A stretch of DNA of 64,000 nucleotides from an uncultured Sphingomonadaceae bacterium (GTDB lineage Bacteria; Pseudomonadota; Alphaproteobacteria; Sphingomonadales; Sphingomonadaceae): assembly GCA_938050045.1 (NCBI GenBank), contig CALLJS010000004.1, forward strand, positions 7,434-71,433, read 5' to 3'. A program made the position numbers and the translations under genes. Positions 43,376 to 63,315 of this stretch are shown here, piece after piece. Within the stretch, counting starts at the first letter, position 1; each line of letters opens with the position of its first letter. Below the pieces are notes generated by a model, which saw nothing but the letters and a program-made list of their open reading frames with translations, was not told where the DNA came from and did no database searches.

Positions 43376-45679
43376 ATGGACCGAAGTTTCACTCTGAATG
43401 ATGCGACAGAAAGCACTGCTCAGGATATTGATCTTGATGCCGAAAATGCTATTGATAATGCGCAAGAAATTGCTTTGCTAAAACGCCGCTTGAAGCGCAG
43501 TGAAATGGCAAGGGAAGAAGCCGAATCCCTATTAGAGAGTAAAAGCAGACGTCTAAGCAAATTGGACGATCAATTACGGCAAAAAGAAGAAGAGTTGATC
43601 CGTAAAGTAGATCAGACGCAACAATATTTGGTAAATGCCCAACGCTTGGCTAATGTCGCCACCTTTCATATTGACGAAGATGTGCGCTTTGTGGGTTCGC
43701 TCAATTTCTCTAAAATTGTTGGCTCGAAATCTGAAGTCAATAATATCAGACAATTACGTGCCATGGTTCATAGGCGCGATATTGATGATATTGATGCGAT
43801 TATCAAAAATGCCATGTTGGGCGGGTTAATTGGTAATGCTCTAGAGCATGATGTGCGCGTGCTGGATGATTATGGACGTATCCGCTGGTTGCGATGGTCG
43901 GCGCAACAGATTGTTAATGCCGATAATGGCAAGGTTGATTGCTATGGAGCGGTTCGCGATATTACCGTTGAACGGCGCGCGGAACGCCATGAAAAAACGC
44001 TGTTGGCCCTGAGCGAGCGACGCTATAAACAGTTGCAAAAAATGTCCGCTCAATTATCCGATCGCGTTAAGGCTATGGAAATGATGAGCAATGCCTTGCG
44101 CGATGCGCGCGAAGTAGCGATTCGGGCTAATAAATCTAAGTCCCGTTTCTTGGCGATGATGAGCCATGATATTCGCACACCAATGAATGCTATTTTGGCA
44201 ACATTAGAATTATTGAGCCTATCTAAATTGGATGAAGTGCAGAAACGGCAATTAAAATTGGTGCAAAATAGCGGCGATCAATTGCTATTCCTGCTAGCTG
44301 ATATTATTGAATATGCCCGATCGGATGGTTGGTTGATTGAAATAGAAGCCCAACCCATTGCCGTCGATACTGTTATCAGCAATACAGCCGATACGTGGCG
44401 GCAATTGGCGCATAAAAAAGATTTGGACATTCAAACCGATATAAAAATGGATGGTGGTAATTATATCAAAACCGATCCAACACGGGTGCGTCAGTTGCTG
44501 GATAATTTGATAAGCAATGCCATTAAATATACCGATAATGGTATCATTACGATTAGCGCGACTATTAAGTCTGATAAGGATGATAATATATTAAGGGTTA
44601 GCGTTTCTGATACTGGTGATGGGATTAGCGAATCGGTGCAACAAATGTTGTTTGAAGATTTAGAGCGCGGCGAACATCAAGATGATTTGAATATCCAAGG
44701 CAGCGGATTAGGTTTGTCCATTTGTCGCCGCATTGTATATGCTATGAATGGCGATATTGGCGTAGAAAGTAAATTGAATCAGGGCAGCATGTTCTGGTTT
44801 GAAATTCCAGTTAAAACCACGAACGAAGAAGATTATCTCTATAATCAAGTCAGCGAGAAAACTATTCAAACATTGCTGGCAAATGGGCGACGCCCAAAAT
44901 TATTAATAGCCGAAGATGTGGCTGCTAACCGCATGGTTTTAACCTCTATGTTGGAAAAATTAGGGTGCGATTATGAAATTGCTATCGATGGCCGTCAAGC
45001 GGTTGAAATAACGCAATTGCATAAATTTGATGCCATTTTGATGGATGTCTCTATGCCGCGCATGAACGGGATGGAGGCCACTAAAGAAATACGCTCACAA
45101 GGTAAGGAAACCCCTATTATCGCCGTTACTGCCTTTGCTGCCGATGACGAAAAAGAAGCGATTATGGCCTCGGGTATGGATGGTTTAATTTCTAAACCTA
45201 TTAGCATCTCATCGCTATATCAATCGCTCGAAACCATCTTTTGTGGTGCGGATAATAATGATTTGCACCGATATTTGGGCAATGGTGAAAATGATAATCA
45301 TAACCGTGCCTCGGTCCCCGATTTTGATGTTATAGATTATATTGATACCGAAAAATTACACCATCAGCTAATATCTGTCCCGCCCGAAATGCGGGTTAAA
45401 TTACAAGAAGCAATTGTCGATGATTTGGGCAGTTGGTTCAGGCGTTTTCAAAGCGCTTGGCAAGCATCGGATGACCAGGAAATATCGGCAGCTAACCATG
45501 CCTTAAAAGGGATTTGTAATGGCTTTGGGGCGCATAAATTAATATCATCAATCGAGAGTTTGCGCGCCAAATCATCGATAGGGGATGCAAAAGCTTTGAC
45601 GCAAGTGATTGAAATTTATGACCATACGGCCTCTTCGTTTAAGAATGCAGCCGCGATAATAGACGAACGCAACGGCTAA
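43376..45679 (+). CDS. Soluble hybrid sensor histidine kinase: coiled-coil, PAS, HisKA, HATPase, REC, HPt
   Basis: H-box SRFLAMMSHDIRTPMNAI. N box DNLISNAIKYT, G boxes DTGDGI and GSGLGLSI. Receiver ILMDVSMPRMNG. C-terminal HPt motif NHALKGICNGFGA. No hydrophobic TM stretch. Confidence 0.9.
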   Translation: MDRSFTLNDATESTAQDIDLDAENAIDNAQEIALLKRRLKRSEMAREEAESLLESKSRRLSKLDDQLRQKEEELIRKVDQTQQYLVNAQRLANVATFHIDEDVRFVGSLNFSKIVGSKSEVNNIRQLRAMVHRRDIDDIDAIIKNAMLGGLIGNALEHDVRVLDDYGRIRWLRWSAQQIVNADNGKVDCYGAVRDITVERRAERHEKTLLALSERRYKQLQKMSAQLSDRVKAMEMMSNALRDAREVAIRANKSKSRFLAMMSHDIRTPMNAILATLELLSLSKLDEVQKRQLKLVQNSGDQLLFLLADIIEYARSDGWLIEIEAQPIAVDTVISNTADTWRQLAHKKDLDIQTDIKMDGGNYIKTDPTRVRQLLDNLISNAIKYTDNGIITISATIKSDKDDNILRVSVSDTGDGISESVQQMLFEDLERGEHQDDLNIQGSGLGLSICRRIVYAMNGDIGVESKLNQGSMFWFEIPVKTTNEEDYLYNQVSEKTIQTLLANGRRPKLLIAEDVAANRMVLTSMLEKLGCDYEIAIDGRQAVEITQLHKFDAILMDVSMPRMNGMEATKEIRSQGKETPIIAVTAFAADDEKEAIMASGMDGLISKPISISSLYQSLETIFCGADNNDLHRYLGNGENDNHNRASVPDFDVIDYIDTEKLHHQLISVPPEMRVKLQEAIVDDLGSWFRRFQSAWQASDDQEISAANHALKGICNGFGAHKLISSIESLRAKSSIGDAKALTQVIEIYDHTASSFKNAAAIIDERNG

Positions 45680-45826: not shown

Positions 45827-47299
45827 TTAATAGGCGCCTTTGCCCGTTATGACGGCTGGGATGGTGCGGAATATTAATTTAATATCCTTCCACAAAGATT
45901 TTTTCTCAAGATATTCGACATCCAAATCGACTTGCTGTTCAAAGGGAATATCAGCGCGACCAGAAACTTGCCATGTGCAGGTGATGCCAGGTTTTCCGTC
46001 CAACCTTTTGCGTTCTTTATCGCCATAAGCAATAACCTCATTGGGCAAGGCAGGTCTTGGCCCAACTATGGACATTTCGCCTGTTAGCACATTCACAATT
46101 TGCGGTAATTCATCAATAGAGGCACGGCGAATAAATTTGCCAACGCGCGTTACTCTTGGGTCTTTCTTCATTTTGAAACATACAGAATCGCGTTCATTCA
46201 TATCGCTTAATTCTGCTTTTCGGGCTTCTGCATCGCTATACATAGACCGAAATTTCCAAATCTTAAATGGCTTACCATCTTTGCCGATACGGGTTTGTTT
46301 GAATAAGGGTGAGCCTTTATCTTCTAAGGCTATGAGCAAGCAAAGCGCAGCAGCTATCGGCCCCAATAAAATTAATGCAACCAATGCGATCGTCATATCC
46401 AAACCGCGTTTCATGATATTTTTATATCGTTCTTTATAGCCTCTGCTCTCGAGCGCATAAATTACGGCGCGCGATAAAAACTCAATATTACCCGCAAGAT
46501 AGCGTCCCGCCAACCTTTTGGGTTCGCACATAAACCGCCAGACCCATTCCATATGCATTGTGCGCATTAATTTTGGGGCTCTTGGGATTCTACCAGAATA
46601 ATAATCAAACAAACCGCCGACGCCCATCACCACAGCCGCAGTTAATTTATCACGATTTTTATTGATCCAAACCTCTTGATGCGGAACACCCATGCCGACC
46701 AAAACTATAGAAGCTCCAGATGCATTGATGGCGGCGATAATTTCGTCTTCCTCTTTTTCTTTATCATAATATCCATGCTGCGTACCAGCGAACTTTAGCC
46801 CAGGATAGCTGTTGCGCATATTCTTACTAGCCGCCGCCGCGACGCCCTGTGCGCCCCCCAATAAAAATAAGGATTGACCAGCGATATTTGCTTTTTCGCA
46901 CAGAAGCGGAAATAAATCGGTACCATTTAGGTTGTTGATATAGTCTGTACCAGCCATTTTCCCAGCTAATTTTACGCCAGCACCATCGGGCAAAATCGCA
47001 TCAGCATTTTTGAGGGCTTCTTTATAGTCTGCATTTTTGCGAGAGATGTTGACGCAATGCGCGTTGATAAAATGCAATGTGTTCTTTTCGCCCAAAGCTG
47101 CAGCCTTTACGATTGCACTAGCTGTATCTTCTAAGGAAGAATTAACCAGCGGTATTTGAAAGAGAGGAATCGATTTTTTGCGATTGAGGTGCAAACCCAA
47201 ATTGGTGGTATCGGCATCGATATTAGAAATGGTGGACTGACCGTTCATTGCTTCTAATTTAAGCCGTGCAAATTGATTGTTGATGTCAATATAACTCAT
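45827..47299 (-). CDS. Fusion protein: WecG/TagA/CpsF (GT26) glycosyltransferase N-domain plus bacterial sugar transferase (polyprenyl-phosphate phosphoglycosyltransferase) C-domain
   Basis: The N-half has GT26 motifs (INAHCVN, LPDGAGV, GVPHQEVW, RAPKLMRTMHMEWVWR). The C-half has PGT motifs (PLFKQTRIG, KFRSM, DPRVTRVG, DELPQ, SIVGPRP). Confidence 0.85.
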   Translation of the reverse strand: MSYIDINNQFARLKLEAMNGQSTISNIDADTTNLGLHLNRKKSIPLFQIPLVNSSLEDTASAIVKAAALGEKNTLHFINAHCVNISRKNADYKEALKNADAILPDGAGVKLAGKMAGTDYINNLNGTDLFPLLCEKANIAGQSLFLLGGAQGVAAAASKNMRNSYPGLKFAGTQHGYYDKEKEEDEIIAAINASGASIVLVGMGVPHQEVWINKNRDKLTAAVVMGVGGLFDYYSGRIPRAPKLMRTMHMEWVWRFMCEPKRLAGRYLAGNIEFLSRAVIYALESRGYKERYKNIMKRGLDMTIALVALILLGPIAAALCLLIALEDKGSPLFKQTRIGKDGKPFKIWKFRSMYSDAEARKAELSDMNERDSVCFKMKKDPRVTRVGKFIRRASIDELPQIVNVLTGEMSIVGPRPALPNEVIAYGDKERKRLDGKPGITCTWQVSGRADIPFEQQVDLDVEYLEKKSLWKDIKLIFRTIPAVITGKGAY

Positions 47300-47331
47300 A
47301 TCGCGTCTCCATATAATTATGGTGATATAAG

Positions 47332-47347
47332 AGCATAATTTGTGCCA
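47332..47347 (-). promoter_or_regulatory. Sigma-54 type -24/-12 promoter motif for the GT26-PGT gene
   Basis: The minus strand reads TGGCACAAATTATGCT. GG and GC are at consensus spacing, about 35 nt upstream of the ATG at 47299, with a GGAGA RBS in between. Confidence 0.55.
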
Positions 47348-47453
47348 AATAGGGTAATGTTCTCAAATTCAAACCTTTATATGGTTAATGCTATATAAGG
47401 GATTACTGCATTGAAAAATAGAGATAAATTTATTCTCAATTTACGAATATGAT

Positions 47454-47496
47454 ATTGCAAAATGCAAATTATTCTGCCCCATATTTGCATATTGCT
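47454..47496. promoter_or_regulatory. Candidate enhancer (UAS): TTGCA-AAA-TGCAA palindrome plus TTGCA-TAT-TGCTA near-copy
   Basis: Perfect inverted repeat at 47454-47466. A one-mismatch copy lies at 47484-47496, 30 bp centre to centre. Both lie between the two divergent -24/-12 motifs. Confidence 0.45.
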
Positions 47497-47549
47497 AAAT
47501 CAAATAATATTAATTTATTTAAGACATTGTAATATTTGATTTTATTTTT

Positions 47550-47565
47550 TGGCACGGCTTTTGAA
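47550..47565 (+). promoter_or_regulatory. Weaker sigma-54-like -24/-12 motif for the wzx-GT2-GT2-GT4 operon
   Basis: TGGCACGGCTTTTGAA: the -24 half is perfect, but the -12 half has GA instead of the conserved GC. It lies 31 nt upstream of the ATG at 47596. Confidence 0.35.
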
Positions 47566-47595
47566 TAATAGTCTGACTAAAGATTAGGACAGAAT

Positions 47596-48882
47596 ATGAA
47601 AACAATGGCGATGAAATTGAAAAATAGCTTTGCAGAAGGCGGAAGCTTGCCAATCATCAATGCATTGATGGCTTATGGTTCAGCGCAATTGGCCATTCGT
47701 TTGGTGCGTTTGGTTGTGGTTATCATCATTGCGCGGCAATTGGTGCCAGAATTGGTCGGCGTTGCGGCTCTAACATTGACGATATTCGAACTTACCCGCG
47801 TCCTAGCCAATATAGGCGTTGGTCAAAAAATTATATCCTCGACCAATGCTGACTTTGAAAAAACATGCAATAGCGCGCATAGAATATTTTGGATTTGGTG
47901 CCCTGCGGTTGCCGCTGTGCAATTGCTCATGGCGCTGGGACTATATACTATATTTGATCAATATTTATCCGCAATGATGCTCGCTTCGCTCTGCTTGGTA
48001 TATTTCTTTATGCCGGGTGGTTTGGTGCAATGTTTTCGTCTTATGCGGGCAAAGAAACTATCAACCTGCGCCAAAATTGACGCTATTCAAACGATCAGCG
48101 ATCATATCTTAACCTGCGCGATGTTGATGGTATGGATTAGCCCTTGGTCGATCGTGCTGCCCAAATTGCTTACGGCACCCATTTGGCTCATCATGATGCG
48201 CCGCAGTGAAAGCTGGAAACCCGATGCATCGCTGGGCTTTATTGAATATCGCTCTATGGTGCGATTTGGATTGTCGGTATTAATCACCGATAGTTTAATC
48301 GCTATCCGCAGCCAAGCCGATAAATTGATAATCGGTGCGATGTTGGGCGTCAGCGCATTGGGCACTTATTATTTCGCCTTTAATGCGGGCATTGGCATAG
48401 TATCTGCTCTGATAACCGCGTTTGGCACAGTGATATATCCACATTTGTGCAACAATGAATTAGCCGCACAACAGCGCGATAAAATGAAATTAGCGATAAT
48501 GGCTGGCCTTGCCATTTTTGGAACTGCCGCCGCCGCGCAATATATTTTAGCTCCTTATTATGTGCCGATCATTTTCGGTGAAAAATGGAACCATGCGACG
48601 CAGCTAATCCAGATATTGGCATTGGCATCTATTCCCATGATTTGCCTAGCTTTGACCACCGGTTGGCTTCGCGCCAATGACCGCGCCAATATTGATGCAT
48701 GGGCAGGGTTATTGGCCAGTGTGTGCGCATTGGGCGCGATGGCAATAGGCGCTCAATATGGCTTAGTTTCGGCGGCGATGGCCTGGGTTGTGGGAACAAC
48801 GCTAATCGCCATTCCATTTGCATTGACAATTTTTATCCCATTATTTCGACTTAATATCCCCAAATTTCAACCAGGAGTATGA
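47596..48882 (+). CDS. Wzx-like polysaccharide flippase (copy 2)
   Basis: 428 aa, multi-TM, first gene of a glycosyltransferase operon. Confidence 0.65.
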   Translation: MKTMAMKLKNSFAEGGSLPIINALMAYGSAQLAIRLVRLVVVIIIARQLVPELVGVAALTLTIFELTRVLANIGVGQKIISSTNADFEKTCNSAHRIFWIWCPAVAAVQLLMALGLYTIFDQYLSAMMLASLCLVYFFMPGGLVQCFRLMRAKKLSTCAKIDAIQTISDHILTCAMLMVWISPWSIVLPKLLTAPIWLIMMRRSESWKPDASLGFIEYRSMVRFGLSVLITDSLIAIRSQADKLIIGAMLGVSALGTYYFAFNAGIGIVSALITAFGTVIYPHLCNNELAAQQRDKMKLAIMAGLAIFGTAAAAQYILAPYYVPIIFGEKWNHATQLIQILALASIPMICLALTTGWLRANDRANIDAWAGLLASVCALGAMAIGAQYGLVSAAMAWVVGTTLIAIPFALTIFIPLFRLNIPKFQPGV

Positions 48883-49808
48883 TTATGCCATCCCCTTATT
48901 TTTCCGTTATAATACCCGTCTATAATGCGCAAAACCATCTAAGAGAAACTGTGCAATCTGTAATCGATCAAAGCTTCACAGATTTTGAAATTATCATGAT
49001 TGATGATGGGTCAAGCGACGATAGCCTGGCTATCATGCTTGAACTTGCAAATCATGATGATCGATTGAAAGTCATATCGCAAAATAATCAAGGCGTTTCT
49101 GTAACCCGTAATATGGGGGCAGAGATTGCCAGAGGTAAGTTTTTGGCTTTCTTGGATGCTGATGATATTTGGTTGCCTGAAAAATTAGCAACGCATTACG
49201 CGCTGCATCATCGCAACACGTCTATCAGCGTAAGCTATGGGCAAATCGCATTTGTCGAAACCGATAATTTACTGAGCCTGCGCACATATTCCACCGTTAT
49301 GGAGCATCCGCTTACGATCAATGAAATCGTTGCTGAGAACCCAGTGTGCACCACATCAAATTTGGTGGTTTCGCGCATCTTATTTTTATCAACTGGTGGT
49401 TTTGATGAAACGATGACCCACGCCGAAGACCAAGAATGGCTGGCTAGAATAGTCCAGGATGGCCACATCATTTGCGGTATTGATAGATATTTGGTGGATT
49501 ATCGGCTTAGCGCCGATGGTTTATCGGTTAATTTACCCGCCATGTATGATGGTTGGAAGCTGATGGCACAACAATATAGCGCATCAGAAGATTTCAAATA
49601 TGCAGAAGCCATTTATTTGCGCTATTTATCGCGCCGCGCATTGCGCTCGGGTGCGCCTTCTAAAGTCGCGCTGCACTATGCGATAAAAGGTTTATCCTCC
49701 AATAGCCAAGGCTTTTTTAACGATAAAAAACGCGGCTGGCTGACATTGATTAGCGCAGGCGTTGGAATGATCCTGCCGCGCTCTACGCGCCTGCATATTT
49801 TTGCTTAA
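48879..49808 (+). CDS. GT2-family glycosyltransferase
   Basis: FSVIIPVYN...MIDDGSSDDS...FLDADD motifs. The start could be 48879 or 48885, and the AGGAG RBS favours 48885. Confidence 0.9.
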   Translation: MIMPSPYFSVIIPVYNAQNHLRETVQSVIDQSFTDFEIIMIDDGSSDDSLAIMLELANHDDRLKVISQNNQGVSVTRNMGAEIARGKFLAFLDADDIWLPEKLATHYALHHRNTSISVSYGQIAFVETDNLLSLRTYSTVMEHPLTINEIVAENPVCTTSNLVVSRILFLSTGGFDETMTHAEDQEWLARIVQDGHIICGIDRYLVDYRLSADGLSVNLPAMYDGWKLMAQQYSASEDFKYAEAIYLRYLSRRALRSGAPSKVALHYAIKGLSSNSQGFFNDKKRGWLTLISAGVGMILPRSTRLHIFA

Positions 49809-49841
49809 TGACTCTATCAAAATAATAGGAAAGATTTGAAA

Positions 49842-50834
49842 ATGAATGATGTTTTAATTTCGGTTGTAATGCCCGTCTATAATGTAGAAAAATATGTAGC
49901 AGAATCGATCCAATCGGTTTTGAATCAAAGCTATGAAAATTTTGAACTGATCATTGTGGATGATGGAGGTCAGGATAAAAGTATTGATATTTGTCACCAA
50001 TTTGACGACCCGCGAATTAGAATAATTTCGCAAAATAACAGAGGATTGGCTGGCGCGCGTAATAGTGGAATTAATGCCGCTAAAGGACGCTATATCGCAT
50101 TTTTAGATAGCGATGATTTGTGGCATAAAGATAAATTATCGCTGCATAAAATCCATTTGGATAGCAATGGACGCATCGGCGTAAGCTATAGTAGTTCGCG
50201 CTTCATTGACGAAAATAGCAAACCATTAAAACAAGCCCAAAAACCAAAATTATTAGATATTACGGCAGAGCATATTTTTAAGCGCAATCCGATTGGTAAT
50301 GGCTCAGCCCCCGTTATTCGGCGTGATGCACTAAATTTAATCGCCTTTAGGCATCCGAAAGAAAATGATAGAATATGTTATTTTGATGAGAGTTTTCGTC
50401 AATCCGAAGACATTGAACTATGGGTTCGCATTGCATTGACCAGCCCCTTTATTTTTGAAGGGATAGGCGGGCTGCTGACACGATACCGCATCATCAGCGG
50501 CGGATTATCGGCCAATATTGTTGCGCAATATCAAAGCTGGGATAGAATGCATGATAAGGTTAAAGAGCGTTTCCCCGAATTTATTAGCGATCATGGAGCA
50601 GAAGCGAGAGCGTATCAATTGCGCTATTTATCGCGCCGTGCCGTCCAATTAGGCGATGGCGCATTTGCGCTAATCTTGATAAAAGAAGCACTACAAATTA
50701 GCCGCACGCCGCTTTGCAAAGAGCCGATTAAAACGCTCTCAACCATGGCGGCGGCCTATATTTCGCGCTATCTGCCATCGTCATTCGTATCGTCTTTGAT
50801 GGCGGGTTGGACTGGCAGAAAGTCGATCATATGA
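49842..50834 (+). CDS. GT2-family glycosyltransferase (tandem paralogue)
   Basis: ISVVMPVYN...IVDDGGQDKS...FLDSDD. It shares the YLSRRA C-terminal region with the preceding gene. The ATG at 49842 has an AGGAAAG RBS. Confidence 0.9.
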   Translation: MNDVLISVVMPVYNVEKYVAESIQSVLNQSYENFELIIVDDGGQDKSIDICHQFDDPRIRIISQNNRGLAGARNSGINAAKGRYIAFLDSDDLWHKDKLSLHKIHLDSNGRIGVSYSSSRFIDENSKPLKQAQKPKLLDITAEHIFKRNPIGNGSAPVIRRDALNLIAFRHPKENDRICYFDESFRQSEDIELWVRIALTSPFIFEGIGGLLTRYRIISGGLSANIVAQYQSWDRMHDKVKERFPEFISDHGAEARAYQLRYLSRRAVQLGDGAFALILIKEALQISRTPLCKEPIKTLSTMAAAYISRYLPSSFVSSLMAGWTGRKSII

Positions 50835-51859
50835 CATATTTACCAAAAATTGTTCATTTGATTTCTGATTTATCGGTGGGCGGTGTGACCAATAATTTGA
50901 AATTATTTGATGAAGATATATTACAATCAAAATTTGCATCCACTATTGTGCCCATTACAACGCAATGGACGATAGCCCCGCAATATGATGCTGATATTAT
51001 CATCACCCATTTTTCACCAAGTTGGGCAAATTTGCCCTTTCTATTTTCGTTGCGCAAACGCAATATCGGGGCGAAGATTATTCATGTCGAGCATAGCTAT
51101 TCTCCTGAATGGGAAAAATATAGCGTCCCCGAGCCGCATCGTTTTCGGGCTATGCTTAAATTTAGCTATGCTCTTTTTGATAGGGTGGTTTGTGTGTCCA
51201 AAACACAATCAAAATGGATCGAGACTATCAAGGCGGCCCATCCATCTAAGCTACAGGTAATAAACCCATGGTCCAATATTGAACCATTACTCTCTATCGC
51301 TGCGCCTAAATTAGAGGATGATAGGCCGTTGGTCATTGGCAGCTTTGGCAGATTAGTAAAAGAAAAAGGATTTGAAGATTTAATCCACTCTTTTCTAAAA
51401 ATAGCTGACGGCGATGATATGACCCTCTTGATCGGTGGATATGGCCCCGCCGAGGCGCATCTGAAAAAAATAGCAGCGGATGACCCTCGGATAAAATTTT
51501 ATGGCATGGTGCATAATCCAGCCGAATTTATGATGCATTGCGATATTTTTGCTGTGCCGTCTTATTTTGAAACCTTTGGCTTAGTAGCCACCGAGGCTAA
51601 AGCCGCCGCCAGACCCGTGCTGGTCAGCCCTGTGGGGGCATTGGTCGAGCAAATCGGCAATTCAGGACTGGTGATCGACTTTACCAAACATAGTCAAGCC
51701 GGCCGCAGCTTAGCATCCTTAAAATCATGGCCATTACAAATGATGTCCGATGAAGGACGGCAGTCTTGCATCTCTATGACCGCGCGCAAAGCCGCGCAAT
51801 GGGAGCAATTTTTGAACGCGCAAATTATGGATGATTTTATCGCATCAAAGGCGGCATAA
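50831..51859 (+). CDS. GT4/GT1-family glycosyltransferase
   Basis: E-x7-E region (SYFETFGLVATEAKAAARPVLVS). The ATG at 50831 forms an ATGA overlap with the upstream stop. Confidence 0.85.
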   Translation: MTYLPKIVHLISDLSVGGVTNNLKLFDEDILQSKFASTIVPITTQWTIAPQYDADIIITHFSPSWANLPFLFSLRKRNIGAKIIHVEHSYSPEWEKYSVPEPHRFRAMLKFSYALFDRVVCVSKTQSKWIETIKAAHPSKLQVINPWSNIEPLLSIAAPKLEDDRPLVIGSFGRLVKEKGFEDLIHSFLKIADGDDMTLLIGGYGPAEAHLKKIAADDPRIKFYGMVHNPAEFMMHCDIFAVPSYFETFGLVATEAKAAARPVLVSPVGALVEQIGNSGLVIDFTKHSQAGRSLASLKSWPLQMMSDEGRQSCISMTARKAAQWEQFLNAQIMDDFIASKAA

Positions 51860-52340: not shown

Positions 52341-53621
52341 TTACGCATCACCCTTTTCATGGCTCTCGGGCATCAGCCCTTGACCGATGAGGATGAGGGC
52401 GGGCCAATAGAGATAGGCTAATATCTCTAAATTTTCACCAAAGCTGTATAATATGAGCAATGTCACCATCGATAAGGCGAGGCGCGATGCATGATATTTA
52501 TGCGCATTATAGAGCAAGAATAGAAATGAAACAGCCAGCGGTATGGCAAGAGCAAAAAAGCCGCTGAGCCCCTTTACAAATAATAATCCATACCAGCTAT
52601 GGTGGCTGCCTATGGGCATATATTCAACCAAATGTGGGCCGCGCTCTACGACGGCATGGCCAAACCAATAGGCTTCATTCTGCCACCGCTCAACCGCGAT
52701 ACGGCCCAGCGCTGCGCGCACGCGCGATGAATCAGCTCGCGCTCCTGAAAAGCTCTGAATCGCGCTATCAATCAAATTGATAATATCGACCGCAAACCAA
52801 CCCAAGAGCAATAATATCGGCATGGCCATAAACCATAGATAGGGTCTATTGATTTGTGATGCCGCAAAAGCAAAAGGCCAAATGATAATGAGCGCAACCA
52901 GTGCCAGGCGCGATTGTGATAAGAGCATGATTGCGAGCGATGCTATCAAACCGATGGCCTTCCATTTCGCGTCTTTTTCTTCGAGCGCGCATAAAAAATG
53001 TACCAAGGCTATCATCCCAGCAGCAGGCGACCATGGGGCAAAAAATTGCCACCGCGCTGTGCCGACACCAGGTTCGATTGTATATAAAGTTGCCGCAAAA
53101 TATTCGCTGCCAGAGCCGCCCAAAACTTTGAGGGGGGATACCCATAATGTTTGCGGCAGTCCGATATAAGGCGCGATCAAAAAGAGCGGTAAAATAAGCA
53201 GGCTATATTTGCCCAAACGGCATATGGCGCGGTGGATGACCTCGCTGCGTATCGGCAGCACAGCACCGGCCAGAATGAACATGGCTAATAAAGCCCATCC
53301 TTTTGCCCAACCGATAGAGGATTTAATCGTTGCGCCCGTGCCGAGGCGATAATCGACATGACCGATCCATAAAATGACCAAGAGCGCGAACATGCCCACA
53401 ATCCATAGCCATATGAATATGTTGGGGGCTTTGATACGTTTTTCTTCGGCTAAGCCTGGTGCTATAAAATAAGTCGATAGGACGATGGCGGTTAGCGCGA
53501 CCCCAAGAACGGGGCCGGCTATATATAATCCGCCGACCAACCATAAACCCCAAGTGCTTATTATGGCATAGACAATTATTTTTTCTTGAATATTTTGCGG
53601 ATGATCCGCTGACGTAACCAT
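52341..53621 (-). CDS. O-antigen ligase/polymerase (Wzy-like) family membrane protein
   Basis: About 10-12 TM segments and a Wzy_C-like LLSQSRLALVALIIIWP segment. Confidence 0.7.
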   Translation of the reverse strand: MVTSADHPQNIQEKIIVYAIISTWGLWLVGGLYIAGPVLGVALTAIVLSTYFIAPGLAEEKRIKAPNIFIWLWIVGMFALLVILWIGHVDYRLGTGATIKSSIGWAKGWALLAMFILAGAVLPIRSEVIHRAICRLGKYSLLILPLFLIAPYIGLPQTLWVSPLKVLGGSGSEYFAATLYTIEPGVGTARWQFFAPWSPAAGMIALVHFLCALEEKDAKWKAIGLIASLAIMLLSQSRLALVALIIIWPFAFAASQINRPYLWFMAMPILLLLGWFAVDIINLIDSAIQSFSGARADSSRVRAALGRIAVERWQNEAYWFGHAVVERGPHLVEYMPIGSHHSWYGLLFVKGLSGFFALAIPLAVSFLFLLYNAHKYHASRLALSMVTLLILYSFGENLEILAYLYWPALILIGQGLMPESHEKGDA

Positions 53622-55003
53622 AATAATGTCAATCCAATGATAAGAAAGAGTGTTGCTGCTATTGCGCCAGCGATTGCTAGCATTTTTGATGGGCTAGAAG
53701 GGCCGTTGGGTAGAGAAGGGGCTTCTAATAGCTGAACCAAGGGATAAGAAGCAAATGGATCTTGTTTATTGGTATCTAGGCGCGCCAAGGCCGATGAAAA
53801 CACCGCCTCGGCCACGCGGTGATCGCGAATAAGATCCGCGAGCTGCGATGCGCTGGTTACAAGCTCGCTGCGATTAGCCGATAATCTGCTAATGTCGCGG
53901 CGAATTTCGGATAGGCTAGCATTGATACCAGAGCGTTGTGATTCTGCCAAAGCCATGCCTTGCATCAAATTGGAACGACCAGCCGATACCGTAATATCAA
54001 CGCTATTTAGGATGGAATCATTGTCCAAGCCTGTAACGTCGCGTCCACGGCGCAGCAGGGCATCACGCAGGCTATCGCGTTCATCTTTGCTGACTATCAG
54101 AGCAGTATGATTATCGCCCAAAGTCGCCGATTTTTCCTCTGCGATGACAGAGGCTTTGGCATATTTATCGGCCAGCCCCTGAAATATTGGATCAGAGCGC
54201 AATTTGAGAGCTTTATTGGCATCGCCAATGCCCGTTCCTAAGATAGCGGCGAATTTTTGCGTTTCGGCCGCTTTGCTGCGTAATTTTGTGCGCTCATCGC
54301 GCTCTTTTTCCTGCAAAGCATCCAAATTGGCAATGCGGTTATTAAATTGATCTAATGAAACCAAGCCATTATTGGCTTGAAAAGCGAGCAATTTCTTTTG
54401 GGTAGATTGCACCTTTTTTTCCAATTCCACCAAATATTTGCTATCCACTATCTCGCGCTGCTTCGCTTCATCTTTGCGCAAAGATTGAAGCTGCAATAAA
54501 AATTGGTCTTTAAGAGCCGCTGCCCTTTTTTCGGCTTGCTCTGCGCTGCCGCCCGATATTTTCACAATAATCAAATTGGTTTGATCGATAAGTTCAATTT
54601 TTGGTGTGGGAAAATTATCCGCCTCTTCGCCTAAGCTGATGGCGGCACTGCGCAATGTGCGGTTGGTGCTGAGCAGCCTTTTGTAATTTTCCGTAGGACT
54701 CAAAGTCGCGCTAGCAAAAGCCGATGATGAGGAAGATTGGGCCTGCCCAATACTCTCAACATTGAGCGAACCGCCAGCACCACTTCCAGGTAATATCAAC
54801 GAAAATTCACTTTGATATTTAGCTGGTGTAAAGAGCAAATAGGCAGTGGTTAGCGACCAAATAGCAGCGAAAATCAATAATGAAGTGATAAGATAACGCC
54901 GCTCGCGCCAGTGCAAATTTCGCCATGATAATTTGCGCTGTTTGATAATATCTCTAATGAATATGACAGCATGGTCATAATCTAATTGTTCTATAATCGA
55001 CAT
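53576..55003 (-). CDS. Polysaccharide co-polymerase / chain-length determinant (Wzz/GumC-like), no kinase domain
   Basis: An N-terminal and a C-terminal TM segment flank a long coiled-coil periplasmic region. There are no Walker motifs. Confidence 0.75.
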   Translation of the reverse strand: MSIIEQLDYDHAVIFIRDIIKQRKLSWRNLHWRERRYLITSLLIFAAIWSLTTAYLLFTPAKYQSEFSLILPGSGAGGSLNVESIGQAQSSSSSAFASATLSPTENYKRLLSTNRTLRSAAISLGEEADNFPTPKIELIDQTNLIIVKISGGSAEQAEKRAAALKDQFLLQLQSLRKDEAKQREIVDSKYLVELEKKVQSTQKKLLAFQANNGLVSLDQFNNRIANLDALQEKERDERTKLRSKAAETQKFAAILGTGIGDANKALKLRSDPIFQGLADKYAKASVIAEEKSATLGDNHTALIVSKDERDSLRDALLRRGRDVTGLDNDSILNSVDITVSAGRSNLMQGMALAESQRSGINASLSEIRRDISRLSANRSELVTSASQLADLIRDHRVAEAVFSSALARLDTNKQDPFASYPLVQLLEAPSLPNGPSSPSKMLAIAGAIAATLFLIIGLTLLWLRQRIIRKIFKKK

Positions 55004-55005
55004 GA

Positions 55006-56187
55006 TTAATCCAAACTCTTGACTAAGATTAATGGAGAAATAGTCTCACCTACGACGCTCACCACATCGCGCAAATTCATCGCCAAACTGTCATAACATG
55101 CGATGCTGTCACCGGGCATAAGATAGGGATCACGGCTATCGCGGTCGGCATTACGAACTAATTTTTCGACAGCACGCGATATTACAATTGATTGACCCGT
55201 GATTGGATTGCGCGACATAAGCACAATCTGACGCGCTGCATTCATCGATGAACCACCCACGCAATTGGCTCCAACCATCGCTTGAGAGAGGCGCGTACCA
55301 TAAGGCAGCTTGCCGCTATCGGTGGTTATCCCCGATGAGGCGCTGCTAAGTGCTGGCCGCGATAGGTTCGACATATAAACGCGAACACCAGGTTGGGTGA
55401 TAATGGTTGGGCGAACCAAGGAAGCTTGTAAACATCCGATTGATGGGACAATGATCTTATCGCCCATTCGCACAGGTATGTCTTGCACAGCCTCTCCTGT
55501 AATGGCCCCGCTCATATTGACTTGTGTCCATTGATTACCGCGTAATAGATATATGGTTTTGATTTCGGCATCGGGTCGAACACCGCCTGCGGCGCGCAAA
55601 GTGGTGGACATATTCTGGCTAGCATTGGCATCGCCATATTGAATATTATTGAAATTCACATCACGAGTTTCGGCATTTTTATCCCCAATTCTAATTAAAC
55701 CTGGGTCAAATACTGCGCCATTAACCGCAACATTCACGCCGCTTAATTCTGCAATAGTAAGCCTAACCCCAGCATGGGCTCTGCGAATTAAACCTTGGTC
55801 ATATAATGTTTTAGCAACGATATTTTGTGCGCTAATTGTCGATTGTCCTGCAATTTTTATGCGATATTTGCCCAATAATGTTATTTCGCCATTATCGCCT
55901 ATTGTATATGTACCCGTTAATTGGTCTTTATCGCCCGCGACATTTAATTTAATGCTATCGCCGCTATTTAACGCATCCATACTCTCTATGAATTGTTCGG
56001 GCTTTACAAAAGTAAGGCCATCGATTGCCTGCGGGATGGGTGCGCTATGACAAGAGGTTTGATGTATATCGCCCGACATATATTGTGCGGCATAATAATT
56101 TTCAATATCATTATCTGGCGTGCGCATCGTGGCGCACCCCGATAATAGGGACAGCAATGTTAATGAGGTGATAAGTTTTTTCGTCAT
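55006..56187 (-). CDS. wza: Outer-membrane polysaccharide export lipoprotein (Wza-like)
   Basis: Lipobox LLSGC. Poly_export/SLBB-like repeats (GDSIKLNV, GDKIIVP, GDSIACY). Confidence 0.8.
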   Translation of the reverse strand: MTKKLITSLTLLSLLSGCATMRTPDNDIENYYAAQYMSGDIHQTSCHSAPIPQAIDGLTFVKPEQFIESMDALNSGDSIKLNVAGDKDQLTGTYTIGDNGEITLLGKYRIKIAGQSTISAQNIVAKTLYDQGLIRRAHAGVRLTIAELSGVNVAVNGAVFDPGLIRIGDKNAETRDVNFNNIQYGDANASQNMSTTLRAAGGVRPDAEIKTIYLLRGNQWTQVNMSGAITGEAVQDIPVRMGDKIIVPSIGCLQASLVRPTIITQPGVRVYMSNLSRPALSSASSGITTDSGKLPYGTRLSQAMVGANCVGGSSMNAARQIVLMSRNPITGQSIVISRAVEKLVRNADRDSRDPYLMPGDSIACYDSLAMNLRDVVSVVGETISPLILVKSLD

Positions 56188-56275
56188 TTATTATTCCTCT
56201 GGGTGAACCCTATACAAATAGTATAATGGTCTGAGATGCGGTAATTATGCTATTTGCATTTTCGGAATTTTAATT

Positions 56276-56291
56276 TGCAACGGTCGTGCCA
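56276..56291 (-). promoter_or_regulatory. Sigma-54 -24/-12 promoter for the wza-wzz-wzy operon
   Basis: The minus strand reads TGGCACGACCGTTGCA, an exact match to TGGCACG-N4-TTGCW, about 90 nt upstream of the wza ATG (56187). Confidence 0.7.
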
Positions 56292-56353
56292 ATTGCATTT
56301 TTGGTTCAAAATGGTCGAAAATAAGAGGCTTTATCAAATTTATTTTGAAATCT

Positions 56354-56410
56354 TTGCAATTTGCAAACCTTTTTCTTGCATATTGCAATCAAGATTATTG
56401 CATATTGCAA
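56354..56410. promoter_or_regulatory. Candidate enhancer (UAS): three TTGCA-W3-TGCAA palindromes phased 22 bp apart
   Basis: TTGCAATTTGCAA at 56354-56366, TTGCATATTGCAA at 56376-56388, TTGCATATTGCAA at 56398-56410. All three lie between two divergent -24/-12 motifs. Confidence 0.55.
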
Positions 56411-56463
56411 TGCGCTAAGCCCAGAAACTCTATGTTTGACACTATAGTATAGCATTTTGATAT

Positions 56464-56479
56464 TGGCATGAGCATTGCT
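56464..56479 (+). promoter_or_regulatory. Sigma-54 -24/-12 promoter for the hnoX / sigma-54 activator operon
   Basis: TGGCATGAGCATTGCT: GG and GC at consensus spacing, with a TTGCT -12 element. It lies 45 nt upstream of the ATG at 56524, which has an AAGGAAA RBS. Confidence 0.65.
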
Positions 56480-56523: not shown

Positions 56524-57066
56524 ATGAAGGGTATAATATTTACAGAACTTGTGCGCTTTATGGAGCAAGTTAAATCGGCAAAATTTGTTGATGAAGTGAT
56601 TATCGCTGCGCAATTACCCAATGACGGTGCCTTCACTTCTGTGGGTAATTATCCATCGGAATATGCCCTCTCTATGGTGACGCAAGCCTCTGCTGTATCT
56701 GGCATTGATGCCGCCGAATTATGCCGTCTTTTTGGCCATTATCTCTACAATAGATTTTTGGTGCTTTATCCCGATATTATCAGCGCTTATACGAATGCCG
56801 AAGATTTGCTTGCCCATGTTGGCAGCCACATTCATAGCGAAGTGCGCACCTTATACCCTGATGCGCGGCCGCCCCATATAGAGAGCAAGAATAGCGATGA
56901 AGGTTTTGAATTAAATTATCAATCGCACCGCCCTATGGCCGCCATCGCTTGTGGTTTGGTTCAAGGGTGTATGGAGCATTTTAAGGATGAACGCGAGCTG
57001 AAATGGAGTTTTTCAGAGGATGGAAAAAGTGCAAGCTTTACCATTAAGGATCGATTAAATGCCTAA
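56524..57066 (+). CDS. hnoX: H-NOX (haem nitric oxide/oxygen-binding) sensor protein
   Basis: MKGIIF N-terminus. Proximal His104 in HIHSEVRTLYPDARPP. Haem-propionate triad Y132-Q-S134-H-R136 (YxSxR). 180 aa stand-alone domain. Confidence 0.9.
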   Translation: MKGIIFTELVRFMEQVKSAKFVDEVIIAAQLPNDGAFTSVGNYPSEYALSMVTQASAVSGIDAAELCRLFGHYLYNRFLVLYPDIISAYTNAEDLLAHVGSHIHSEVRTLYPDARPPHIESKNSDEGFELNYQSHRPMAAIACGLVQGCMEHFKDERELKWSFSEDGKSASFTIKDRLNA

Positions 57067-58567
57067 ACCGACCATCTTGATAATTGAAGATATTGCTTCG
57101 CTATCTTTGGCATATGCAGGGGATTTAGAAAGTGCTGGTTTTCAATCGATCATCGTTGATAGTCTTGCGCAGGCTAATGAACAAATAAAAAGCAATGCAA
57201 ATGGCTTTGATGCCATCTTGCTTGATCTGCAACTGCCCGATGGCAATGGTTTAGATTGGCTGAGAGAAAATGAAGCGTTTGTTGCCAATAATGCTATCAT
57301 TGTAGCGACAGCCGATGGTTCAATAAACCGTGCGATTGATGCGATGCGTCTTGGTGCTTATGATTTTATGGTCAAGCCACTGGCGCCTGCTCGTTTGGTC
57401 GCAGCGGTCGAAAGCGCTCTAAAAAATAACAGTAAAGCCGATAATATCCCGCAAGAATTGGCGTCACCCGTTCATAAAAATGGTTTCGCGGGCTTTGTTG
57501 GTAACAGCCCCCCCATGCGTAATATTTACAAGCAAATAGAGAATATTAGCCGATCAAAAGCGACAATTTTCATAACAGGTGAGAGCGGCACAGGCAAAGA
57601 AGTTTGCGCCGATGCTATTCATAGCAGCGGCCCGCGCGGCAAAAAGCCTTTTGTTGCTATTAACTGTGGTGCGATTCCCGAAGATTTGATGGAATCTGAA
57701 CTTTTTGGTCATTTGAAAGGATCTTTCACGGGTGCCATTTCTGATCGTGTCGGGGCTGTTCAGGCCGCGCATGGCGGGACATTATTTTTGGATGAAATTT
57801 GTGAAATGGAATTGAAGCTCCAAGTGAAATTATTACGCTTCATTCAAACGGGAACAGTACAGCGCGTTGGTGCGACCAAAACAGAGAATGTCGATGTCCG
57901 TATTATCTGTGCGACCAACCGCGATCCGCAATCCGAAGTAACAGCAGGACGTTTTAGAGAAGATCTATATTATCGTTTGGCCGTTGTCCCGATTGAATTG
58001 CCCGCATTGCGCTCGCGCGGCGATGATATTATATTGCTCGCCAATGAATTTTTGACGCGATATGCCGAAGAAGAAGGCAAGAAATTTTCAACTATGGAAC
58101 CATCCTTAGTGCAAGCATTGCAAATGCACCAATGGCCCGGCAATGTTCGTGAGTTGCAAAATTTGATGCGCCGCGCGGCGGTTATGTATGCGGGGCCAAC
58201 GTTAGGAACAGAAATATTACCCGAATTTATTCCGCCCAAAGAAATTGACCGTATTCAATCCGAACCATTACAGATTAATCCAGCAAATCTAGAAGCAGCG
58301 GCGATGCAAGCCATTGAGTCCGCCAATCAAATGGCGACGCTCACCAATATGGATTGGATGGATGGCCGCACTTTGGATCAGATAGAGCAAATGGTTGTCG
58401 AACAAGCGATAGAAAAATGCGGTGGGAGCGTTACTAAAGCTGCGAAAATTTTGGATGTCAGCCCATCAACCCTCTATCGCAAGCGCGAAAAATGGATGGT
58501 GGATGGAGAAGCTATGGTTGATTTAGAGCAGGTTGATGTGCGCCATTTATCAAAATTACGTTCATAA
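57059..58567 (+). CDS. Sigma-54-dependent response regulator, LuxO/NtrC-like (REC, AAA+, Fis-type HTH)
   Basis: REC domain (IIEDIASLSLAY..., LLDLQLPDGNG). Walker A GESGTGKE. GSFTGA (GAFTGA variant), LFLDEI, and C-terminal HTH (KAAKILDVSPSTLYRK). 8-nt overlap with hnoX. Confidence 0.9.
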   Translation: MPKPTILIIEDIASLSLAYAGDLESAGFQSIIVDSLAQANEQIKSNANGFDAILLDLQLPDGNGLDWLRENEAFVANNAIIVATADGSINRAIDAMRLGAYDFMVKPLAPARLVAAVESALKNNSKADNIPQELASPVHKNGFAGFVGNSPPMRNIYKQIENISRSKATIFITGESGTGKEVCADAIHSSGPRGKKPFVAINCGAIPEDLMESELFGHLKGSFTGAISDRVGAVQAAHGGTLFLDEICEMELKLQVKLLRFIQTGTVQRVGATKTENVDVRIICATNRDPQSEVTAGRFREDLYYRLAVVPIELPALRSRGDDIILLANEFLTRYAEEEGKKFSTMEPSLVQALQMHQWPGNVRELQNLMRRAAVMYAGPTLGTEILPEFIPPKEIDRIQSEPLQINPANLEAAAMQAIESANQMATLTNMDWMDGRTLDQIEQMVVEQAIEKCGGSVTKAAKILDVSPSTLYRKREKWMVDGEAMVDLEQVDVRHLSKLRS

Positions 58568-58574
58568 AATTGAT

Positions 58575-60539
58575 TTAGTCAGCCGCAATCACAGCGATTT
58601 GTGCACTGGCTAAATTTTCTTGCCCAAGGATATAATTGCCGCCGTTCCAAGGATTATATATATCACCAAGATTAATCATTTTACAGCCATAGTTAAAGAT
58701 ATAATAATATCCGTCTTTGCGGCGAATGCGCAAGTCTTCGGGTAATATTATCGGCTCTGCATCGGTTAGCTTTAACAGATCGATGAAGATATTGTGCAGT
58801 AAAGCATCGTCGGGCCAAGCGCTGCAATAATAGATATTATCTTGGCGGCATAATATCGCATTGCCATTATGACATTGTTCCACCACTTCGGCGCTGCCAA
58901 TGATATGCTCTATCCAATGATCGATACGAAAATCATCCCCATGGCGCGAGGTGCCAAAATGATGCAACCCATCTCGCATGCTCTCGACATGTGTGACTTT
59001 AATATCGATTAATTGTTGCAATGGGCCAGGTGCTAAATTTTCAGGGATAGAAAAATCTTTGGTTTTGCTGCCGCTCCTAGGGCCAAACATCACGGGTATA
59101 TCGAGGTTTTTTACTTTTGCGATAAAGCCATCGTCAATAATCGGCATAGAGGGGATGATGAGCATCGCATAACCGTCTAAATCCGCGTCTTGCGCTATAA
59201 TATCAACATTAAGCCCTAATCGGCGCAAAGCGCAATAATGTTCAAATATCAGCCATAAATATTGAAAGCTTTGGCCCTGTGGTTGGTTTTCAAACAGCCA
59301 TTGCGCTTCATATGAAAAATGCAGCGCGACGGTTTGAGATTCTTGAACCATATTTTCGCGCGCATTAGTGAGGATGCTGATCTCCTCTGCCGCTTGGCGC
59401 GCTTCTATGGCACCTTGGGCTTCTTCGCCATCGGGGCGCAGCAATCCTGCATGCATTTGTTCTTGCGCAAAGGGCAGTTGCCGCCATCTGAAATAGGAAC
59501 AAAAATCAGCTCCATGCGCCATAGCCTCTATTGTCCATAATCGCACCATACCATCGAGGGGGGCTGGGTTATGATGCGCCCAATTAACGGGGCCCGCTTG
59601 TTGTTCCATCACGCCCCATTTTGCAGAGCAGCCGCGATAGAGATCATGATGAAAAGCCGCAATGTCAGGATGGCCTTGCCGCGCAAATTTATTTTTATCT
59701 TCTTCGCTAAATGGGAACATATCTAAAAAACCAAGCGGGTAGCTATCCCATGTTGCAATGTCTAAATCATCGCCCACTTTATGGTGATCAAAATCTGTAT
59801 AGAAACCCATGAAATTATGGATGATGTTACGATCGGGTGAATATTTATTGATAATCTGGGTTTGAATTTTATTGAAGGACACGACTTCATCGGAGGCAAA
59901 TCTTCGATAATCCAACAGATGGGCAGGATTGGCTTCTGTGACAATATGGTCGGGTAAATCAATCGAATCAAAGCTTTGATACTCCATGCTCCAAAACACA
60001 TTACCCCAAGCGGTGTTTAAGCTATCAATAGTATCATATTTATTCGACAACCATTCACGAAAACGCGACAAAGCGGCGACAGAATAGCTGAGCACCGTAT
60101 CATGGCAGCCATATTCATTATCGGTCTGCCAGCCCATAATCGCATCATGCTGACCATAGCGTTCCGCCATAGCTTGGGTGATGCGCGCGCATTCTTTGCG
60201 ATAGGGCAAGTGCGAAAAACAATAATGACGCCGCGATCCAAATTTGCGCGGGTTGCCATTTTCATCGATCGCGATCATATCGGGCATAGTATCAACCAGC
60301 CATTTTGGCGGGGTTGCGGTAGGGGTGCCTAATATGATTTTCAGCCCAGTTTTGGCCAAGCTCTCAATAGCGCGATCTAGCCAATCCCAATCATATTGAC
60401 GATGCTTTGGTTCCATGCGGCTCCATGCAAATTCGCCGATACGCACCAATTCCAAGCCCATTTCGCGCATGTGGAGCGCATTATTATCCCATTCATTTTC
60501 GGGCCAATGTTCGGGATAATAACAACATCCTAATTTCAT
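58575..60539 (-). CDS. GH42-family beta-galactosidase
   Basis: MKLGCCYYPEHWPE N-terminus, WQTDNEYG catalytic acid/base region, about 650 aa three-domain size. Confidence 0.9.
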   Translation of the reverse strand: MKLGCCYYPEHWPENEWDNNALHMREMGLELVRIGEFAWSRMEPKHRQYDWDWLDRAIESLAKTGLKIILGTPTATPPKWLVDTMPDMIAIDENGNPRKFGSRRHYCFSHLPYRKECARITQAMAERYGQHDAIMGWQTDNEYGCHDTVLSYSVAALSRFREWLSNKYDTIDSLNTAWGNVFWSMEYQSFDSIDLPDHIVTEANPAHLLDYRRFASDEVVSFNKIQTQIINKYSPDRNIIHNFMGFYTDFDHHKVGDDLDIATWDSYPLGFLDMFPFSEEDKNKFARQGHPDIAAFHHDLYRGCSAKWGVMEQQAGPVNWAHHNPAPLDGMVRLWTIEAMAHGADFCSYFRWRQLPFAQEQMHAGLLRPDGEEAQGAIEARQAAEEISILTNARENMVQESQTVALHFSYEAQWLFENQPQGQSFQYLWLIFEHYCALRRLGLNVDIIAQDADLDGYAMLIIPSMPIIDDGFIAKVKNLDIPVMFGPRSGSKTKDFSIPENLAPGPLQQLIDIKVTHVESMRDGLHHFGTSRHGDDFRIDHWIEHIIGSAEVVEQCHNGNAILCRQDNIYYCSAWPDDALLHNIFIDLLKLTDAEPIILPEDLRIRRKDGYYYIFNYGCKMINLGDIYNPWNGGNYILGQENLASAQIAVIAAD

Positions 60540-62104: not shown

Positions 62105-62115
62105 AAATTATCTCC

Positions 62116-63180: not shown

Positions 63181-63315
63181 AATCCGTCCCCCTTTATAAT
63201 CGGATAAGATGCTATTTATCTGTGCATTATTCCAAAAGAGTTTTAATTACAAATGATACTTTTCTAGATGATTATAGGGTCTCATCATTTTACTTATTGA
63301 GTTGCCTTACTCAAT

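Follow-up and report, generated by a model that had tools for sequence, protein, structure and literature searches.

How is a polysaccharide locus controlled when its neighbouring regulator resembles LuxO, and its host is a marine, Sphingorhabdus-like alphaproteobacterium rather than a Vibrio? This question is raised by a stretch of 64,000 nucleotides from an uncultured Sphingomonadaceae bacterium (assembly GCA_938050045.1, contig CALLJS010000004.1, positions 7,434 to 71,433; hereafter the window), in which a 336-bp spacer separates a wza-like gene from the divergently transcribed hnoX and the activator gene behind it. An earlier reading of the letters alone (the original prediction) had placed in this spacer two back-to-back sigma-54 promoters sharing three phased palindromes, and had proposed that the adjacent LuxO-like activator binds them, autoregulates its own operon and directly drives the polysaccharide operon. 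The analysis reported here makes that core mechanism probable: a LuxO-like activator, acting from a shared three-box enhancer, would drive both sigma-54 promoters. A bidirectional sigma-54 control region is the best explanation of the spacer that comparison of sequences offers.

Direct reading of the spacer confirmed two exact -24/-12 elements, both facing outward and both lying where they had been predicted: TGGCACGACCGTTGCA on the minus strand, directed at the wza-like gene, and TGGCATGAGCATTGCT on the plus strand, directed at hnoX (Table 1). The predicted transcription starts are near 56265 and 56490, giving predicted 5' untranslated regions of about 78 nt and 34 nt, respectively. Between the two promoters stand three palindromes of the form TTGCA-W3-TGCAA, termed boxes 1 to 3, and the spacing of 22 bp between their centres (56360, 56382 and 56404) was measured as claimed. 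So was their distance from the promoters: the gap between the outer box and the -24 element is 63 bp on the wza side and 54 bp on the hnoX side.

Enrichment at this locus, for which the original prediction had suggested a genome-wide scan, is pronounced within the window when only exact sites are counted. The exact palindrome occurs four times in the window against 0.10 expected, and none of 100 dinucleotide-preserving shuffles reached four copies. Three of the four are in the 336-bp spacer, and the fourth lies in the sole other divergent promoter region of the cluster. Exact matches to the promoter pattern, scanned as TGGCAY-N5-TTGCW, number two against 0.37 expected; both are in the spacer, each aimed at a gene start. 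When one mismatch is allowed, neither the palindrome nor the -24/-12 motif is enriched in the window (for the palindrome, 6 versus 3.0 expected, not significant), and therefore the signal is one of exactness and clustering.

The spacer also holds half-sites of the box. A direct repeat of 18 nt, TGCYAWTTGCATTTTYGG, found at 56248-56265 and again at 56287-56304, flanks the wza-side promoter on both sides; each copy carries one box half-site, and the repeat is kept only among close Sphingorhabdus loci. Another half-site, (T/A)GCATTTT at approximately 56452-56460, is situated directly upstream of the hnoX-side -24 element. These half-site repeats near both -24 elements may be auxiliary or autorepression sites.

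The palindrome itself, which the original prediction had taken for the LuxO box, equals TTGCAW3TGCAA, the upstream activating sequence that has been published for LuxO and qrr promoters (PMC11443567; PMC10162802). The activator encoded beside the spacer shows a corresponding kinship. LuxO is its top NCBIfam family (534.9 bits versus 374.6 for NtrC) and its top solved structure (5EP0, from Photobacterium angustum; 398 bits versus 286 for NtrC1), and the C-terminal 78 residues alone score 42.9 bits with the LuxO model versus 24.1 with the next family. The description of the activator as LuxO-like thus holds by family, by structure and by the DNA-binding domain taken on its own. Its AAA+ domain is unmistakable (PF00158, E = 3.6e-70), and the expected motifs are in place: D56 in DLQLPD, Walker A GESGTGKE, Walker B LFLDE, the arginine-finger region and an intact GSFTGA loop. 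Among 120 homologues, this sigma-54 contact loop reads GSFTGA in 97 and GAFTGA in 21. The REC–AAA+ linker, FAGFVGNS, aligns with YQGFIGNS of LuxO 5EP0, including the conserved glycine, whose importance has been described (PMC10162802); the sole other enhancer-binding protein predicted to have a LuxO-type linker is SypG (PMC10162802). The closest homologues are metagenome proteins (75-89% identity), followed by those of Parasphingorhabdus/Sphingorhabdus (67%). The activator is not a LuxO orthologue, because its score falls under the equivalog cut-off and its host is alphaproteobacterial; by its sequence it is a LuxO-like paralogue or clade, with a LuxO-like DNA-binding domain, and is not LuxO itself.

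To place the spacer in a comparative context, related loci were collected by a scan of one genome per species, using as a query an alignment of the chain-length protein of the module, which has no Pfam match. The scan yielded 80 loci. The closest one (93%) belongs to an uncultured Sphingorhabdus sp. (Sphingomonadales, Alphaproteobacteria); others come from Parasphingorhabdus, Novosphingobium, Sandarakinorhabdus, Erythrobacter, Qipengyuania, Citromicrobium and further genera, and a few are gammaproteobacterial (Salinisphaera, Salinicola). Footprints were read from two close sets, one of 4 close loci and one of 16 Sphingorhabdus and Parasphingorhabdus genomes. In both sets the spacer has diverged almost completely, and five islands alone are conserved: the wza-side CAA....GTGCCA, the three boxes, and the hnoX-side TTGGCA.......TGCTT. 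Across the 16 genomes, the GG and GC of both promoters are invariant; box 1 is the best conserved of the three, as TTTGCAATTTGCAAA together with its flanks, box 2 is conserved as TTGCATATTGC(A/G)A, and box 3 is looser, TGCA-N3/4-TGC(A/G)A. The same layout was found on direct reading in Parasphingorhabdus sp. NYA22 and Sphingomonas lacunae.

The layout persists over larger distances, in about 70 related genomes. In 69 non-redundant spacers, 228 boxes with at most two mismatches were counted, versus 8.0 in shuffles; the spacing of neighbouring boxes peaks sharply at 21-23 bp (82 cases), and the family motif reads T-T/c-G-C-A-W3-T-G-C-A/g-A. Counted with at most one mismatch over the 80 loci, the box density is 4.5 per kb in spacers of the hnoX/activator–wza type, 2.2 per kb in the wecG–flippase spacer and 0.065 per kb in the remaining 1.48 Mb, that is, 33-70 times higher in the two divergent promoter regions of the module than elsewhere. 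Many of the exact boxes counted as elsewhere are still upstream of module genes. Among the promoters, the hnoX-side GG-N10-GC is kept in nearly all of the 75 related spacers, taking the form CGGCACG-N4-TTGCA in Erythrobacteraceae, and the wza-side TGGCAC-N5-TTGC is found without mismatch in Sphingorhabdus, Parasphingorhabdus, Novosphingobium and Sandarakinorhabdus loci.

The genes around these sites are likewise syntenic. The wza-like, chain-length and Wzy-like genes stand opposite hnoX and the activator gene, and the GT4/GT2/GT2/flippase genes stand opposite the WecG/Bac_transf gene, behind which comes the kinase gene. hnoX adjoins the activator gene in 61 of the 75 related loci. Fourteen loci of the Novosphingobium/Sandarakinorhabdus type have the activator gene itself opposite the wza-like gene; in seven of these, of the Novosphingobium type, hnoX is found just upstream of the kinase gene, and this classical pairing ties H-NOX, kinase and activator functionally. 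At five Novosphingobium-type loci with a relocated hnoX, exact or near-exact boxes lie upstream of the gene, 19-22 bp apart where there are two. In four loci from Salinisphaera and Salinicola the module recurs together with its boxes and the promoter on the regulator side, and its presence in these gammaproteobacteria suggests horizontal transfer as a whole unit.

The second divergent spacer of the module, at 47300-47595, repeats the plan of the first, with boxes between two -24/-12-like elements, so that the two spacers together hold four elements of this type. On the WecG side, TGGCAC-N5-ATGC is conserved in Sphingorhabdus and Parasphingorhabdus loci; on the flippase side, TGGCAC-N5-TTGA(A/T) is kept in nearly all of about 60 Sphingomonadales loci, Erythrobacteraceae included. 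A TTGCAAAATGC(A/G)A box is retained at the position of this second enhancer in most loci. With a second enhancer and two further promoters, the predicted regulon becomes the whole polysaccharide module. The original account of the circuit stands for the elements of the 336-bp spacer and was incomplete beyond it, having missed the second enhancer (47.3-47.6 kb) and a hybrid kinase that belong to the same circuit.

Sigma-54 promoters require an upstream enhancer-bound AAA+ activator. We propose that three dimers of the activator would bind the three palindromes; as the boxes are two helical turns apart, the dimers would lie on one face of the DNA and could assemble into the active hexamer. Via DNA looping, the hexamer would remodel sigma-54 RNA polymerase at either of the outward -24/-12 elements. 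One promoter would drive the wza-like/chain-length/Wzy-like operon for export and polymerisation, and the other would drive hnoX and the activator gene, amounting to positive autoregulation. At the second enhancer, the same activator would act on the WecG/Bac_transf gene and on the flippase/glycosyltransferase operon. The regulon would then be the polysaccharide module itself, without a Qrr small RNA as an intermediate. A Qrr-type intermediate within the window was considered and rejected: the boxes front protein-coding operons, and no Qrr or other Rfam RNA was detected in the window, searched as a whole at gathering thresholds and between 45.5 and 58.8 kb at E <= 1. This result fits direct control and bears out the original prediction on that point.

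On the input side, H-NOX would sense nitric oxide and modulate a tripartite hybrid histidine kinase encoded in the module, which is likely both the partner of H-NOX and the phosphodonor for the activator. No transmembrane segment is predicted in the kinase, pointing to a cytoplasmic protein, and its gene is present in most of the fuller related loci. Three signs point to its HPt domain: a weak Pfam Hpt match, an HALKG motif, and alignments that extend through the HPt domains of TorS and ArcB. The kinase could phosphorylate D56 of the activator through this domain, and since it has an HPt of its own, a separate LuxU-type protein would be unnecessary. By analogy with known H-NOX systems, nitric oxide would lower the output of the kinase and hence polysaccharide expression. 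The sensor carries the YxSxR motif as YQSHR and a candidate proximal histidine in IHSEV (residues assigned by eye), and its reading frame overlaps the activator gene by 8 bp.

Several observations weigh against this account. The activator's 534.9 bits remain below the curated cut-off of the LuxO equivalog model (NF041946, 800 bits), and its DNA specificity is consequently deduced from similarity and co-location. A canonical wza-side -24/-12 element is absent from 38 of 39 Erythrobacteraceae loci, even with the search extended into the gene, so that direct sigma-54 control of this operon is not universal; in the Erythrobacteraceae-type loci the boxes persist, as do the -24/-12 elements on the regulator and flippase sides, and the export operon may have had its control rewired there. 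The flippase-side -12 element has GA rather than GC. The nearest box is about 50-70 bp from each -24 element, a short distance for looping unaided by a bending protein; a look for an IHF site between the promoters and the boxes found no convincing consensus, just a GGTTAA that is moderately conserved. The usual arrangement places hnoX beside a histidine kinase or a diguanylate cyclase/phosphodiesterase gene (PMC8738867); here the kinase gene is inside the module, about 11 kb away from hnoX, which makes the link from H-NOX to kinase indirect. Finally, tblastn with E. coli RpoN (from NC_000913.3) gave no match in the window or in 86 related loci, and a literature search for rpoN or sigma-54 in sphingomonads returned nothing usable. 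The conserved G(S/A)FTGA loop, along with the GG and GC of the promoter elements, argues indirectly for the presence of rpoN.

Three other explanations were weighed against the shared enhancer. The one that survives best, though we regard it as unlikely, holds that the enhancer serves a single promoter, for example that of the polysaccharide operon, and that hnoX and the activator gene are constitutive or autorepressed. It is geometry alone that speaks for sharing, and the half-site directly upstream of the hnoX-side -24 element would suit autorepression. Vibrio LuxO represses its own gene. However, of the two -24/-12 elements the one on the hnoX side is conserved more widely, a sigma-54 promoter is silent without an enhancer-binding protein, and no other box cluster is found near this promoter. 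ZraR, moreover, sets a precedent, as one activator of two divergent sigma-54 promoters of which one belongs to its own operon.

Quite improbable, in our judgement, is that the palindromes are operators of another DNA-binding protein, such as a repressor, with the activator working from other sites or from solution. The half-site repeats that bracket the wza-side promoter do hint at a more complex occupancy, but the box is identical to the LuxO site, and the DNA-binding domain of the activator is specifically LuxO-like. The boxes also track the promoters of the module in 80 genomes and move along with a relocated hnoX, and they are placed 50-115 bp upstream of the -24 elements, at enhancer distance and not over the promoters. 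Least probable of all is that the -24/-12 matches are unused, transcription depends on sigma-70 and the LuxO-like protein is a sigma-70 regulator of the VpsR type or a repressor: the missing rpoN match, the Erythrobacteraceae loci lacking a canonical wza-side element and a sigma-70-like site, TTGACA-17-GATATT, overlapping the hnoX-side -24 element would agree with it, but G(S/A)FTGA is intact in 118 of the 120 homologues, three or four promoters keep GG and GC invariant across large evolutionary distances while their flanks diverge, sigma-70-like sites are not enriched (3 versus 2.0 expected), and the TTGACA hexamer is not conserved in the alignment of the four close loci.

The coordinates of the proposed circuit are collected in Table 1. 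The wza-like, chain-length and Wzy-like genes overlap or abut and are syntenic in the 80 loci, as are the WecG/Bac_transf gene and the flippase operon in related loci. Of the gene names used in the original prediction, hnoX stands, and wza does not stand as a firm name; given a Poly_export score under its cut-off, wza-like is the safe one. The opposite strand downstream of the activator gene (58575-60539 and 60587-63999) encodes a GH42 beta-galactosidase, an aldehyde dehydrogenase, a saccharopine-dehydrogenase-like protein and an AMP-binding enzyme; in three close relatives, too, the gene of the GH42 enzyme holds this position. Elsewhere in the window, a LytS-type histidine kinase and a LytTR response regulator form a pair at 29019-30955, and a one-mismatch box, TTGGAATTTGCAA, lies at 29075 within the LytS-type kinase gene and looks like a chance occurrence.

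Table 1. Features of the predicted control circuit and the genes of the polysaccharide module (positions within the window).
Feature	Position	Strand	Details
Tripartite hybrid histidine kinase	43376..45679	+	767 residues; PAS, HisKA, HATPase, REC (Pfam), C-terminal HPt
Fused WecG/TagA-type and Bac_transf priming glycosyltransferase	45827..47299	-	PF03808 and PF02397
Sigma-54-like promoter of the WecG/Bac_transf gene	47332..47347	-	TGGCACAAATTATGCT
Second enhancer (predicted)	47455..47497	.	TTGCAAAATGCAA at 47455-47467, exact; TTGCATATTGCTA at 47485-47497, one mismatch; centres 30 bp apart
Sigma-54-like promoter of the flippase/GT2/GT2/GT4 operon	47550..47565	+	TGGCACGGCTTTTGAA; -12 element TTGAA
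Operon of MOP-family flippase, two GT2 and one GT4	47596..51859	+	
Target operon 1 (predicted)	52341..56187	-	three genes; weak Pfam and NCBIfam matches to Poly_export, EpsE, EpsF, pepcterm_ChnLen and Wzy_C
Wzy_C-like polymerase or ligase	52341-53621	-	weak Wzy_C match
Chain-length-determinant-like protein	53576-55003	-	
wza-like exporter	55006-56187	-	Poly_export 27.2 bits versus cut-off 28; weak EpsE matches
Sigma-54 (-24/-12) promoter (predicted), wza-like/chain-length/Wzy-like operon	56276..56291	-	TGGCACGACCGTTGCA; exact TGGCAY-N5-TTGCW
Box 1 (predicted enhancer)	56354..56366	.	TTGCAATTTGCAA; exact LuxO-type palindrome; centre about 70 bp from wza-side GG
Box 2 (predicted enhancer)	56376..56388	.	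TTGCATATTGCAA; centre 22 bp from that of box 1
Box 3 (predicted enhancer)	56398..56410	.	TTGCATATTGCAA; centre 22 bp from that of box 2, about 61 bp from hnoX-side GG
Sigma-54 (-24/-12) promoter (predicted), hnoX/activator operon	56464..56479	+	TGGCATGAGCATTGCT; exact TGGCAY-N5-TTGCW
hnoX, haem NO/O2-binding sensor	56524..57066	+	Pfam HNOB PF07700, E = 8e-30
LuxO-like sigma-54 enhancer-binding response regulator (activator)	57059..58567	+	502 residues; REC, Sigma54_activat, AAA_lid, HTH_8 (Pfam)

Compared with the LuxO/qrr system of Vibrionaceae, the locus shares the 13-bp site TTGCAWWWTGCAA upstream of sigma-54 promoters, with four exact copies in the window, as well as the REC/AAA+/HTH architecture of the activator, its DNA-binding domain and the glycine-containing linker. 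LuxO of V. harveyi likewise receives input from a kinase that H-NOX controls (PMC8738867). The differences concern host and family (an alphaproteobacterium, and an activator below the LuxO equivalog cut-off), targets and layout. The predicted targets here are not Qrr genes but polysaccharide operons, along with the operon of the activator itself. The qrr promoters of V. fluvialis have one or two LuxO sites at varying spacing (PMC11443567), whereas here there are three sites with a fixed phasing of 21-23 bp; the HPt is within the kinase, with no separate LuxU, and hnoX is in the operon of the activator.

The closest functional analogue is the syp polysaccharide locus of V. fischeri, which is controlled by HnoX, HahK, SypF and SypG (PMC8738867). 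SypG is a LuxO paralogue that directly drives the locus (PMC10162802), its gene lies inside a polysaccharide locus with several sigma-54 promoters, as the activator gene does here, and it is under nitric oxide/H-NOX control via a hybrid kinase and an HPt domain. The two loci differ in gene content and order, and no SypA or SypE homologues are present here; hnoX and hahK of V. fischeri are outside syp, whereas the module described here contains the genes of all three, sensor, kinase and activator. The SypG site TTCTCANNNTGMDWN is absent from the locus; its single occurrence in the window, at 9397, lies outside the locus and is no more than chance would give.

Other systems resemble single parts of the circuit. 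ZraR of E. coli and Salmonella drives the divergent sigma-54 promoters of zraP and zraSR (PMC4987338), and thus is likewise one enhancer-binding protein at two divergent promoters, one of them for its own operon; it differs in family, signal (zinc, envelope stress), site and targets, and it matches the DNA-binding domain of the activator weakly, at 12.6 bits. In the norR-norVW spacer of E. coli, three dyad sites are needed for NorR to form the hexamer, which is read as made up of three dimers (PMC2831303). The resemblance lies in three dyad-symmetric sites in a divergent spacer of a system that responds, or here would respond, to nitric oxide; the three dyads described here are phased, and the phasing is conserved. 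NorR, however, senses nitric oxide by the iron centre of its GAF domain, and norR is not sigma-54 dependent, whereas here sensing would fall to a separate H-NOX and a phosphorelay. The PrsK/PrsR pair of PEP-CTERM/XrtA loci also ties a sigma-54 response regulator to a polysaccharide locus, and the wza-like and chain-length proteins weakly match the EpsE, EpsF and pepcterm models of such loci. Nevertheless, the PrsR model gives the activator 373 bits, short of its cut-off of 503 and of the 535 bits obtained with the LuxO model, and neither an exosortase nor a PEP-CTERM gene was noticed among the genes of the module.

Taken singly, the parts of this circuit are known already: the LuxO box, sigma-54 promoters, enhancers that are shared, and polysaccharide genes under the control of H-NOX. 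What appears to be new is their combination: a LuxO-type activator with its enhancer in Alphaproteobacteria, an operon of hnoX and activator, a phased three-site shared enhancer and direct control of polysaccharide genes. An incomplete literature search on LuxO or H-NOX in sphingomonads, and on H-NOX together with sigma-54, found no prior description of this combination, and the literature searched contained no H-NOX or LuxO-type study on Sphingomonadales.

Together, these comparisons carry the LuxO/SypG family well beyond Vibrionaceae, and with it the regulatory linker and the DNA site. The locus would be a compact natural case in which a single enhancer serves two divergent sigma-54 promoters; the strict phasing proposed for three dimers suits the study of hexamer assembly on DNA, and the conserved TTGAA variant of the -12 element is a ready case for the study of non-canonical sigma-54 promoters. 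We tentatively raise a broader reading, which we consider possible but rather doubtful, that LuxO-type activators and TTGCA-W3-TGCAA enhancers, far from being peculiar to Vibrio quorum sensing, form the core of a self-contained, apparently transferred polysaccharide module, with H-NOX, a tripartite kinase and three or four sigma-54 promoters, widespread in Sphingomonadales and present in some gammaproteobacteria; direct polysaccharide control would then be the broader, possibly ancestral role of such activators, and Qrr control a specialisation of Vibrionaceae. In its boldest version, this reading would have H-NOX act directly on the activator, which would represent a new class of H-NOX partner, an idea prompted by the 8-bp overlap of the two genes and their adjacency in 61 of 75 loci. 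For Sphingomonadales, an abundant marine, freshwater and plant-associated order, the proposed circuit provides a full and testable wiring diagram that would lead from nitric oxide to the genes of exopolysaccharide and biofilm formation.

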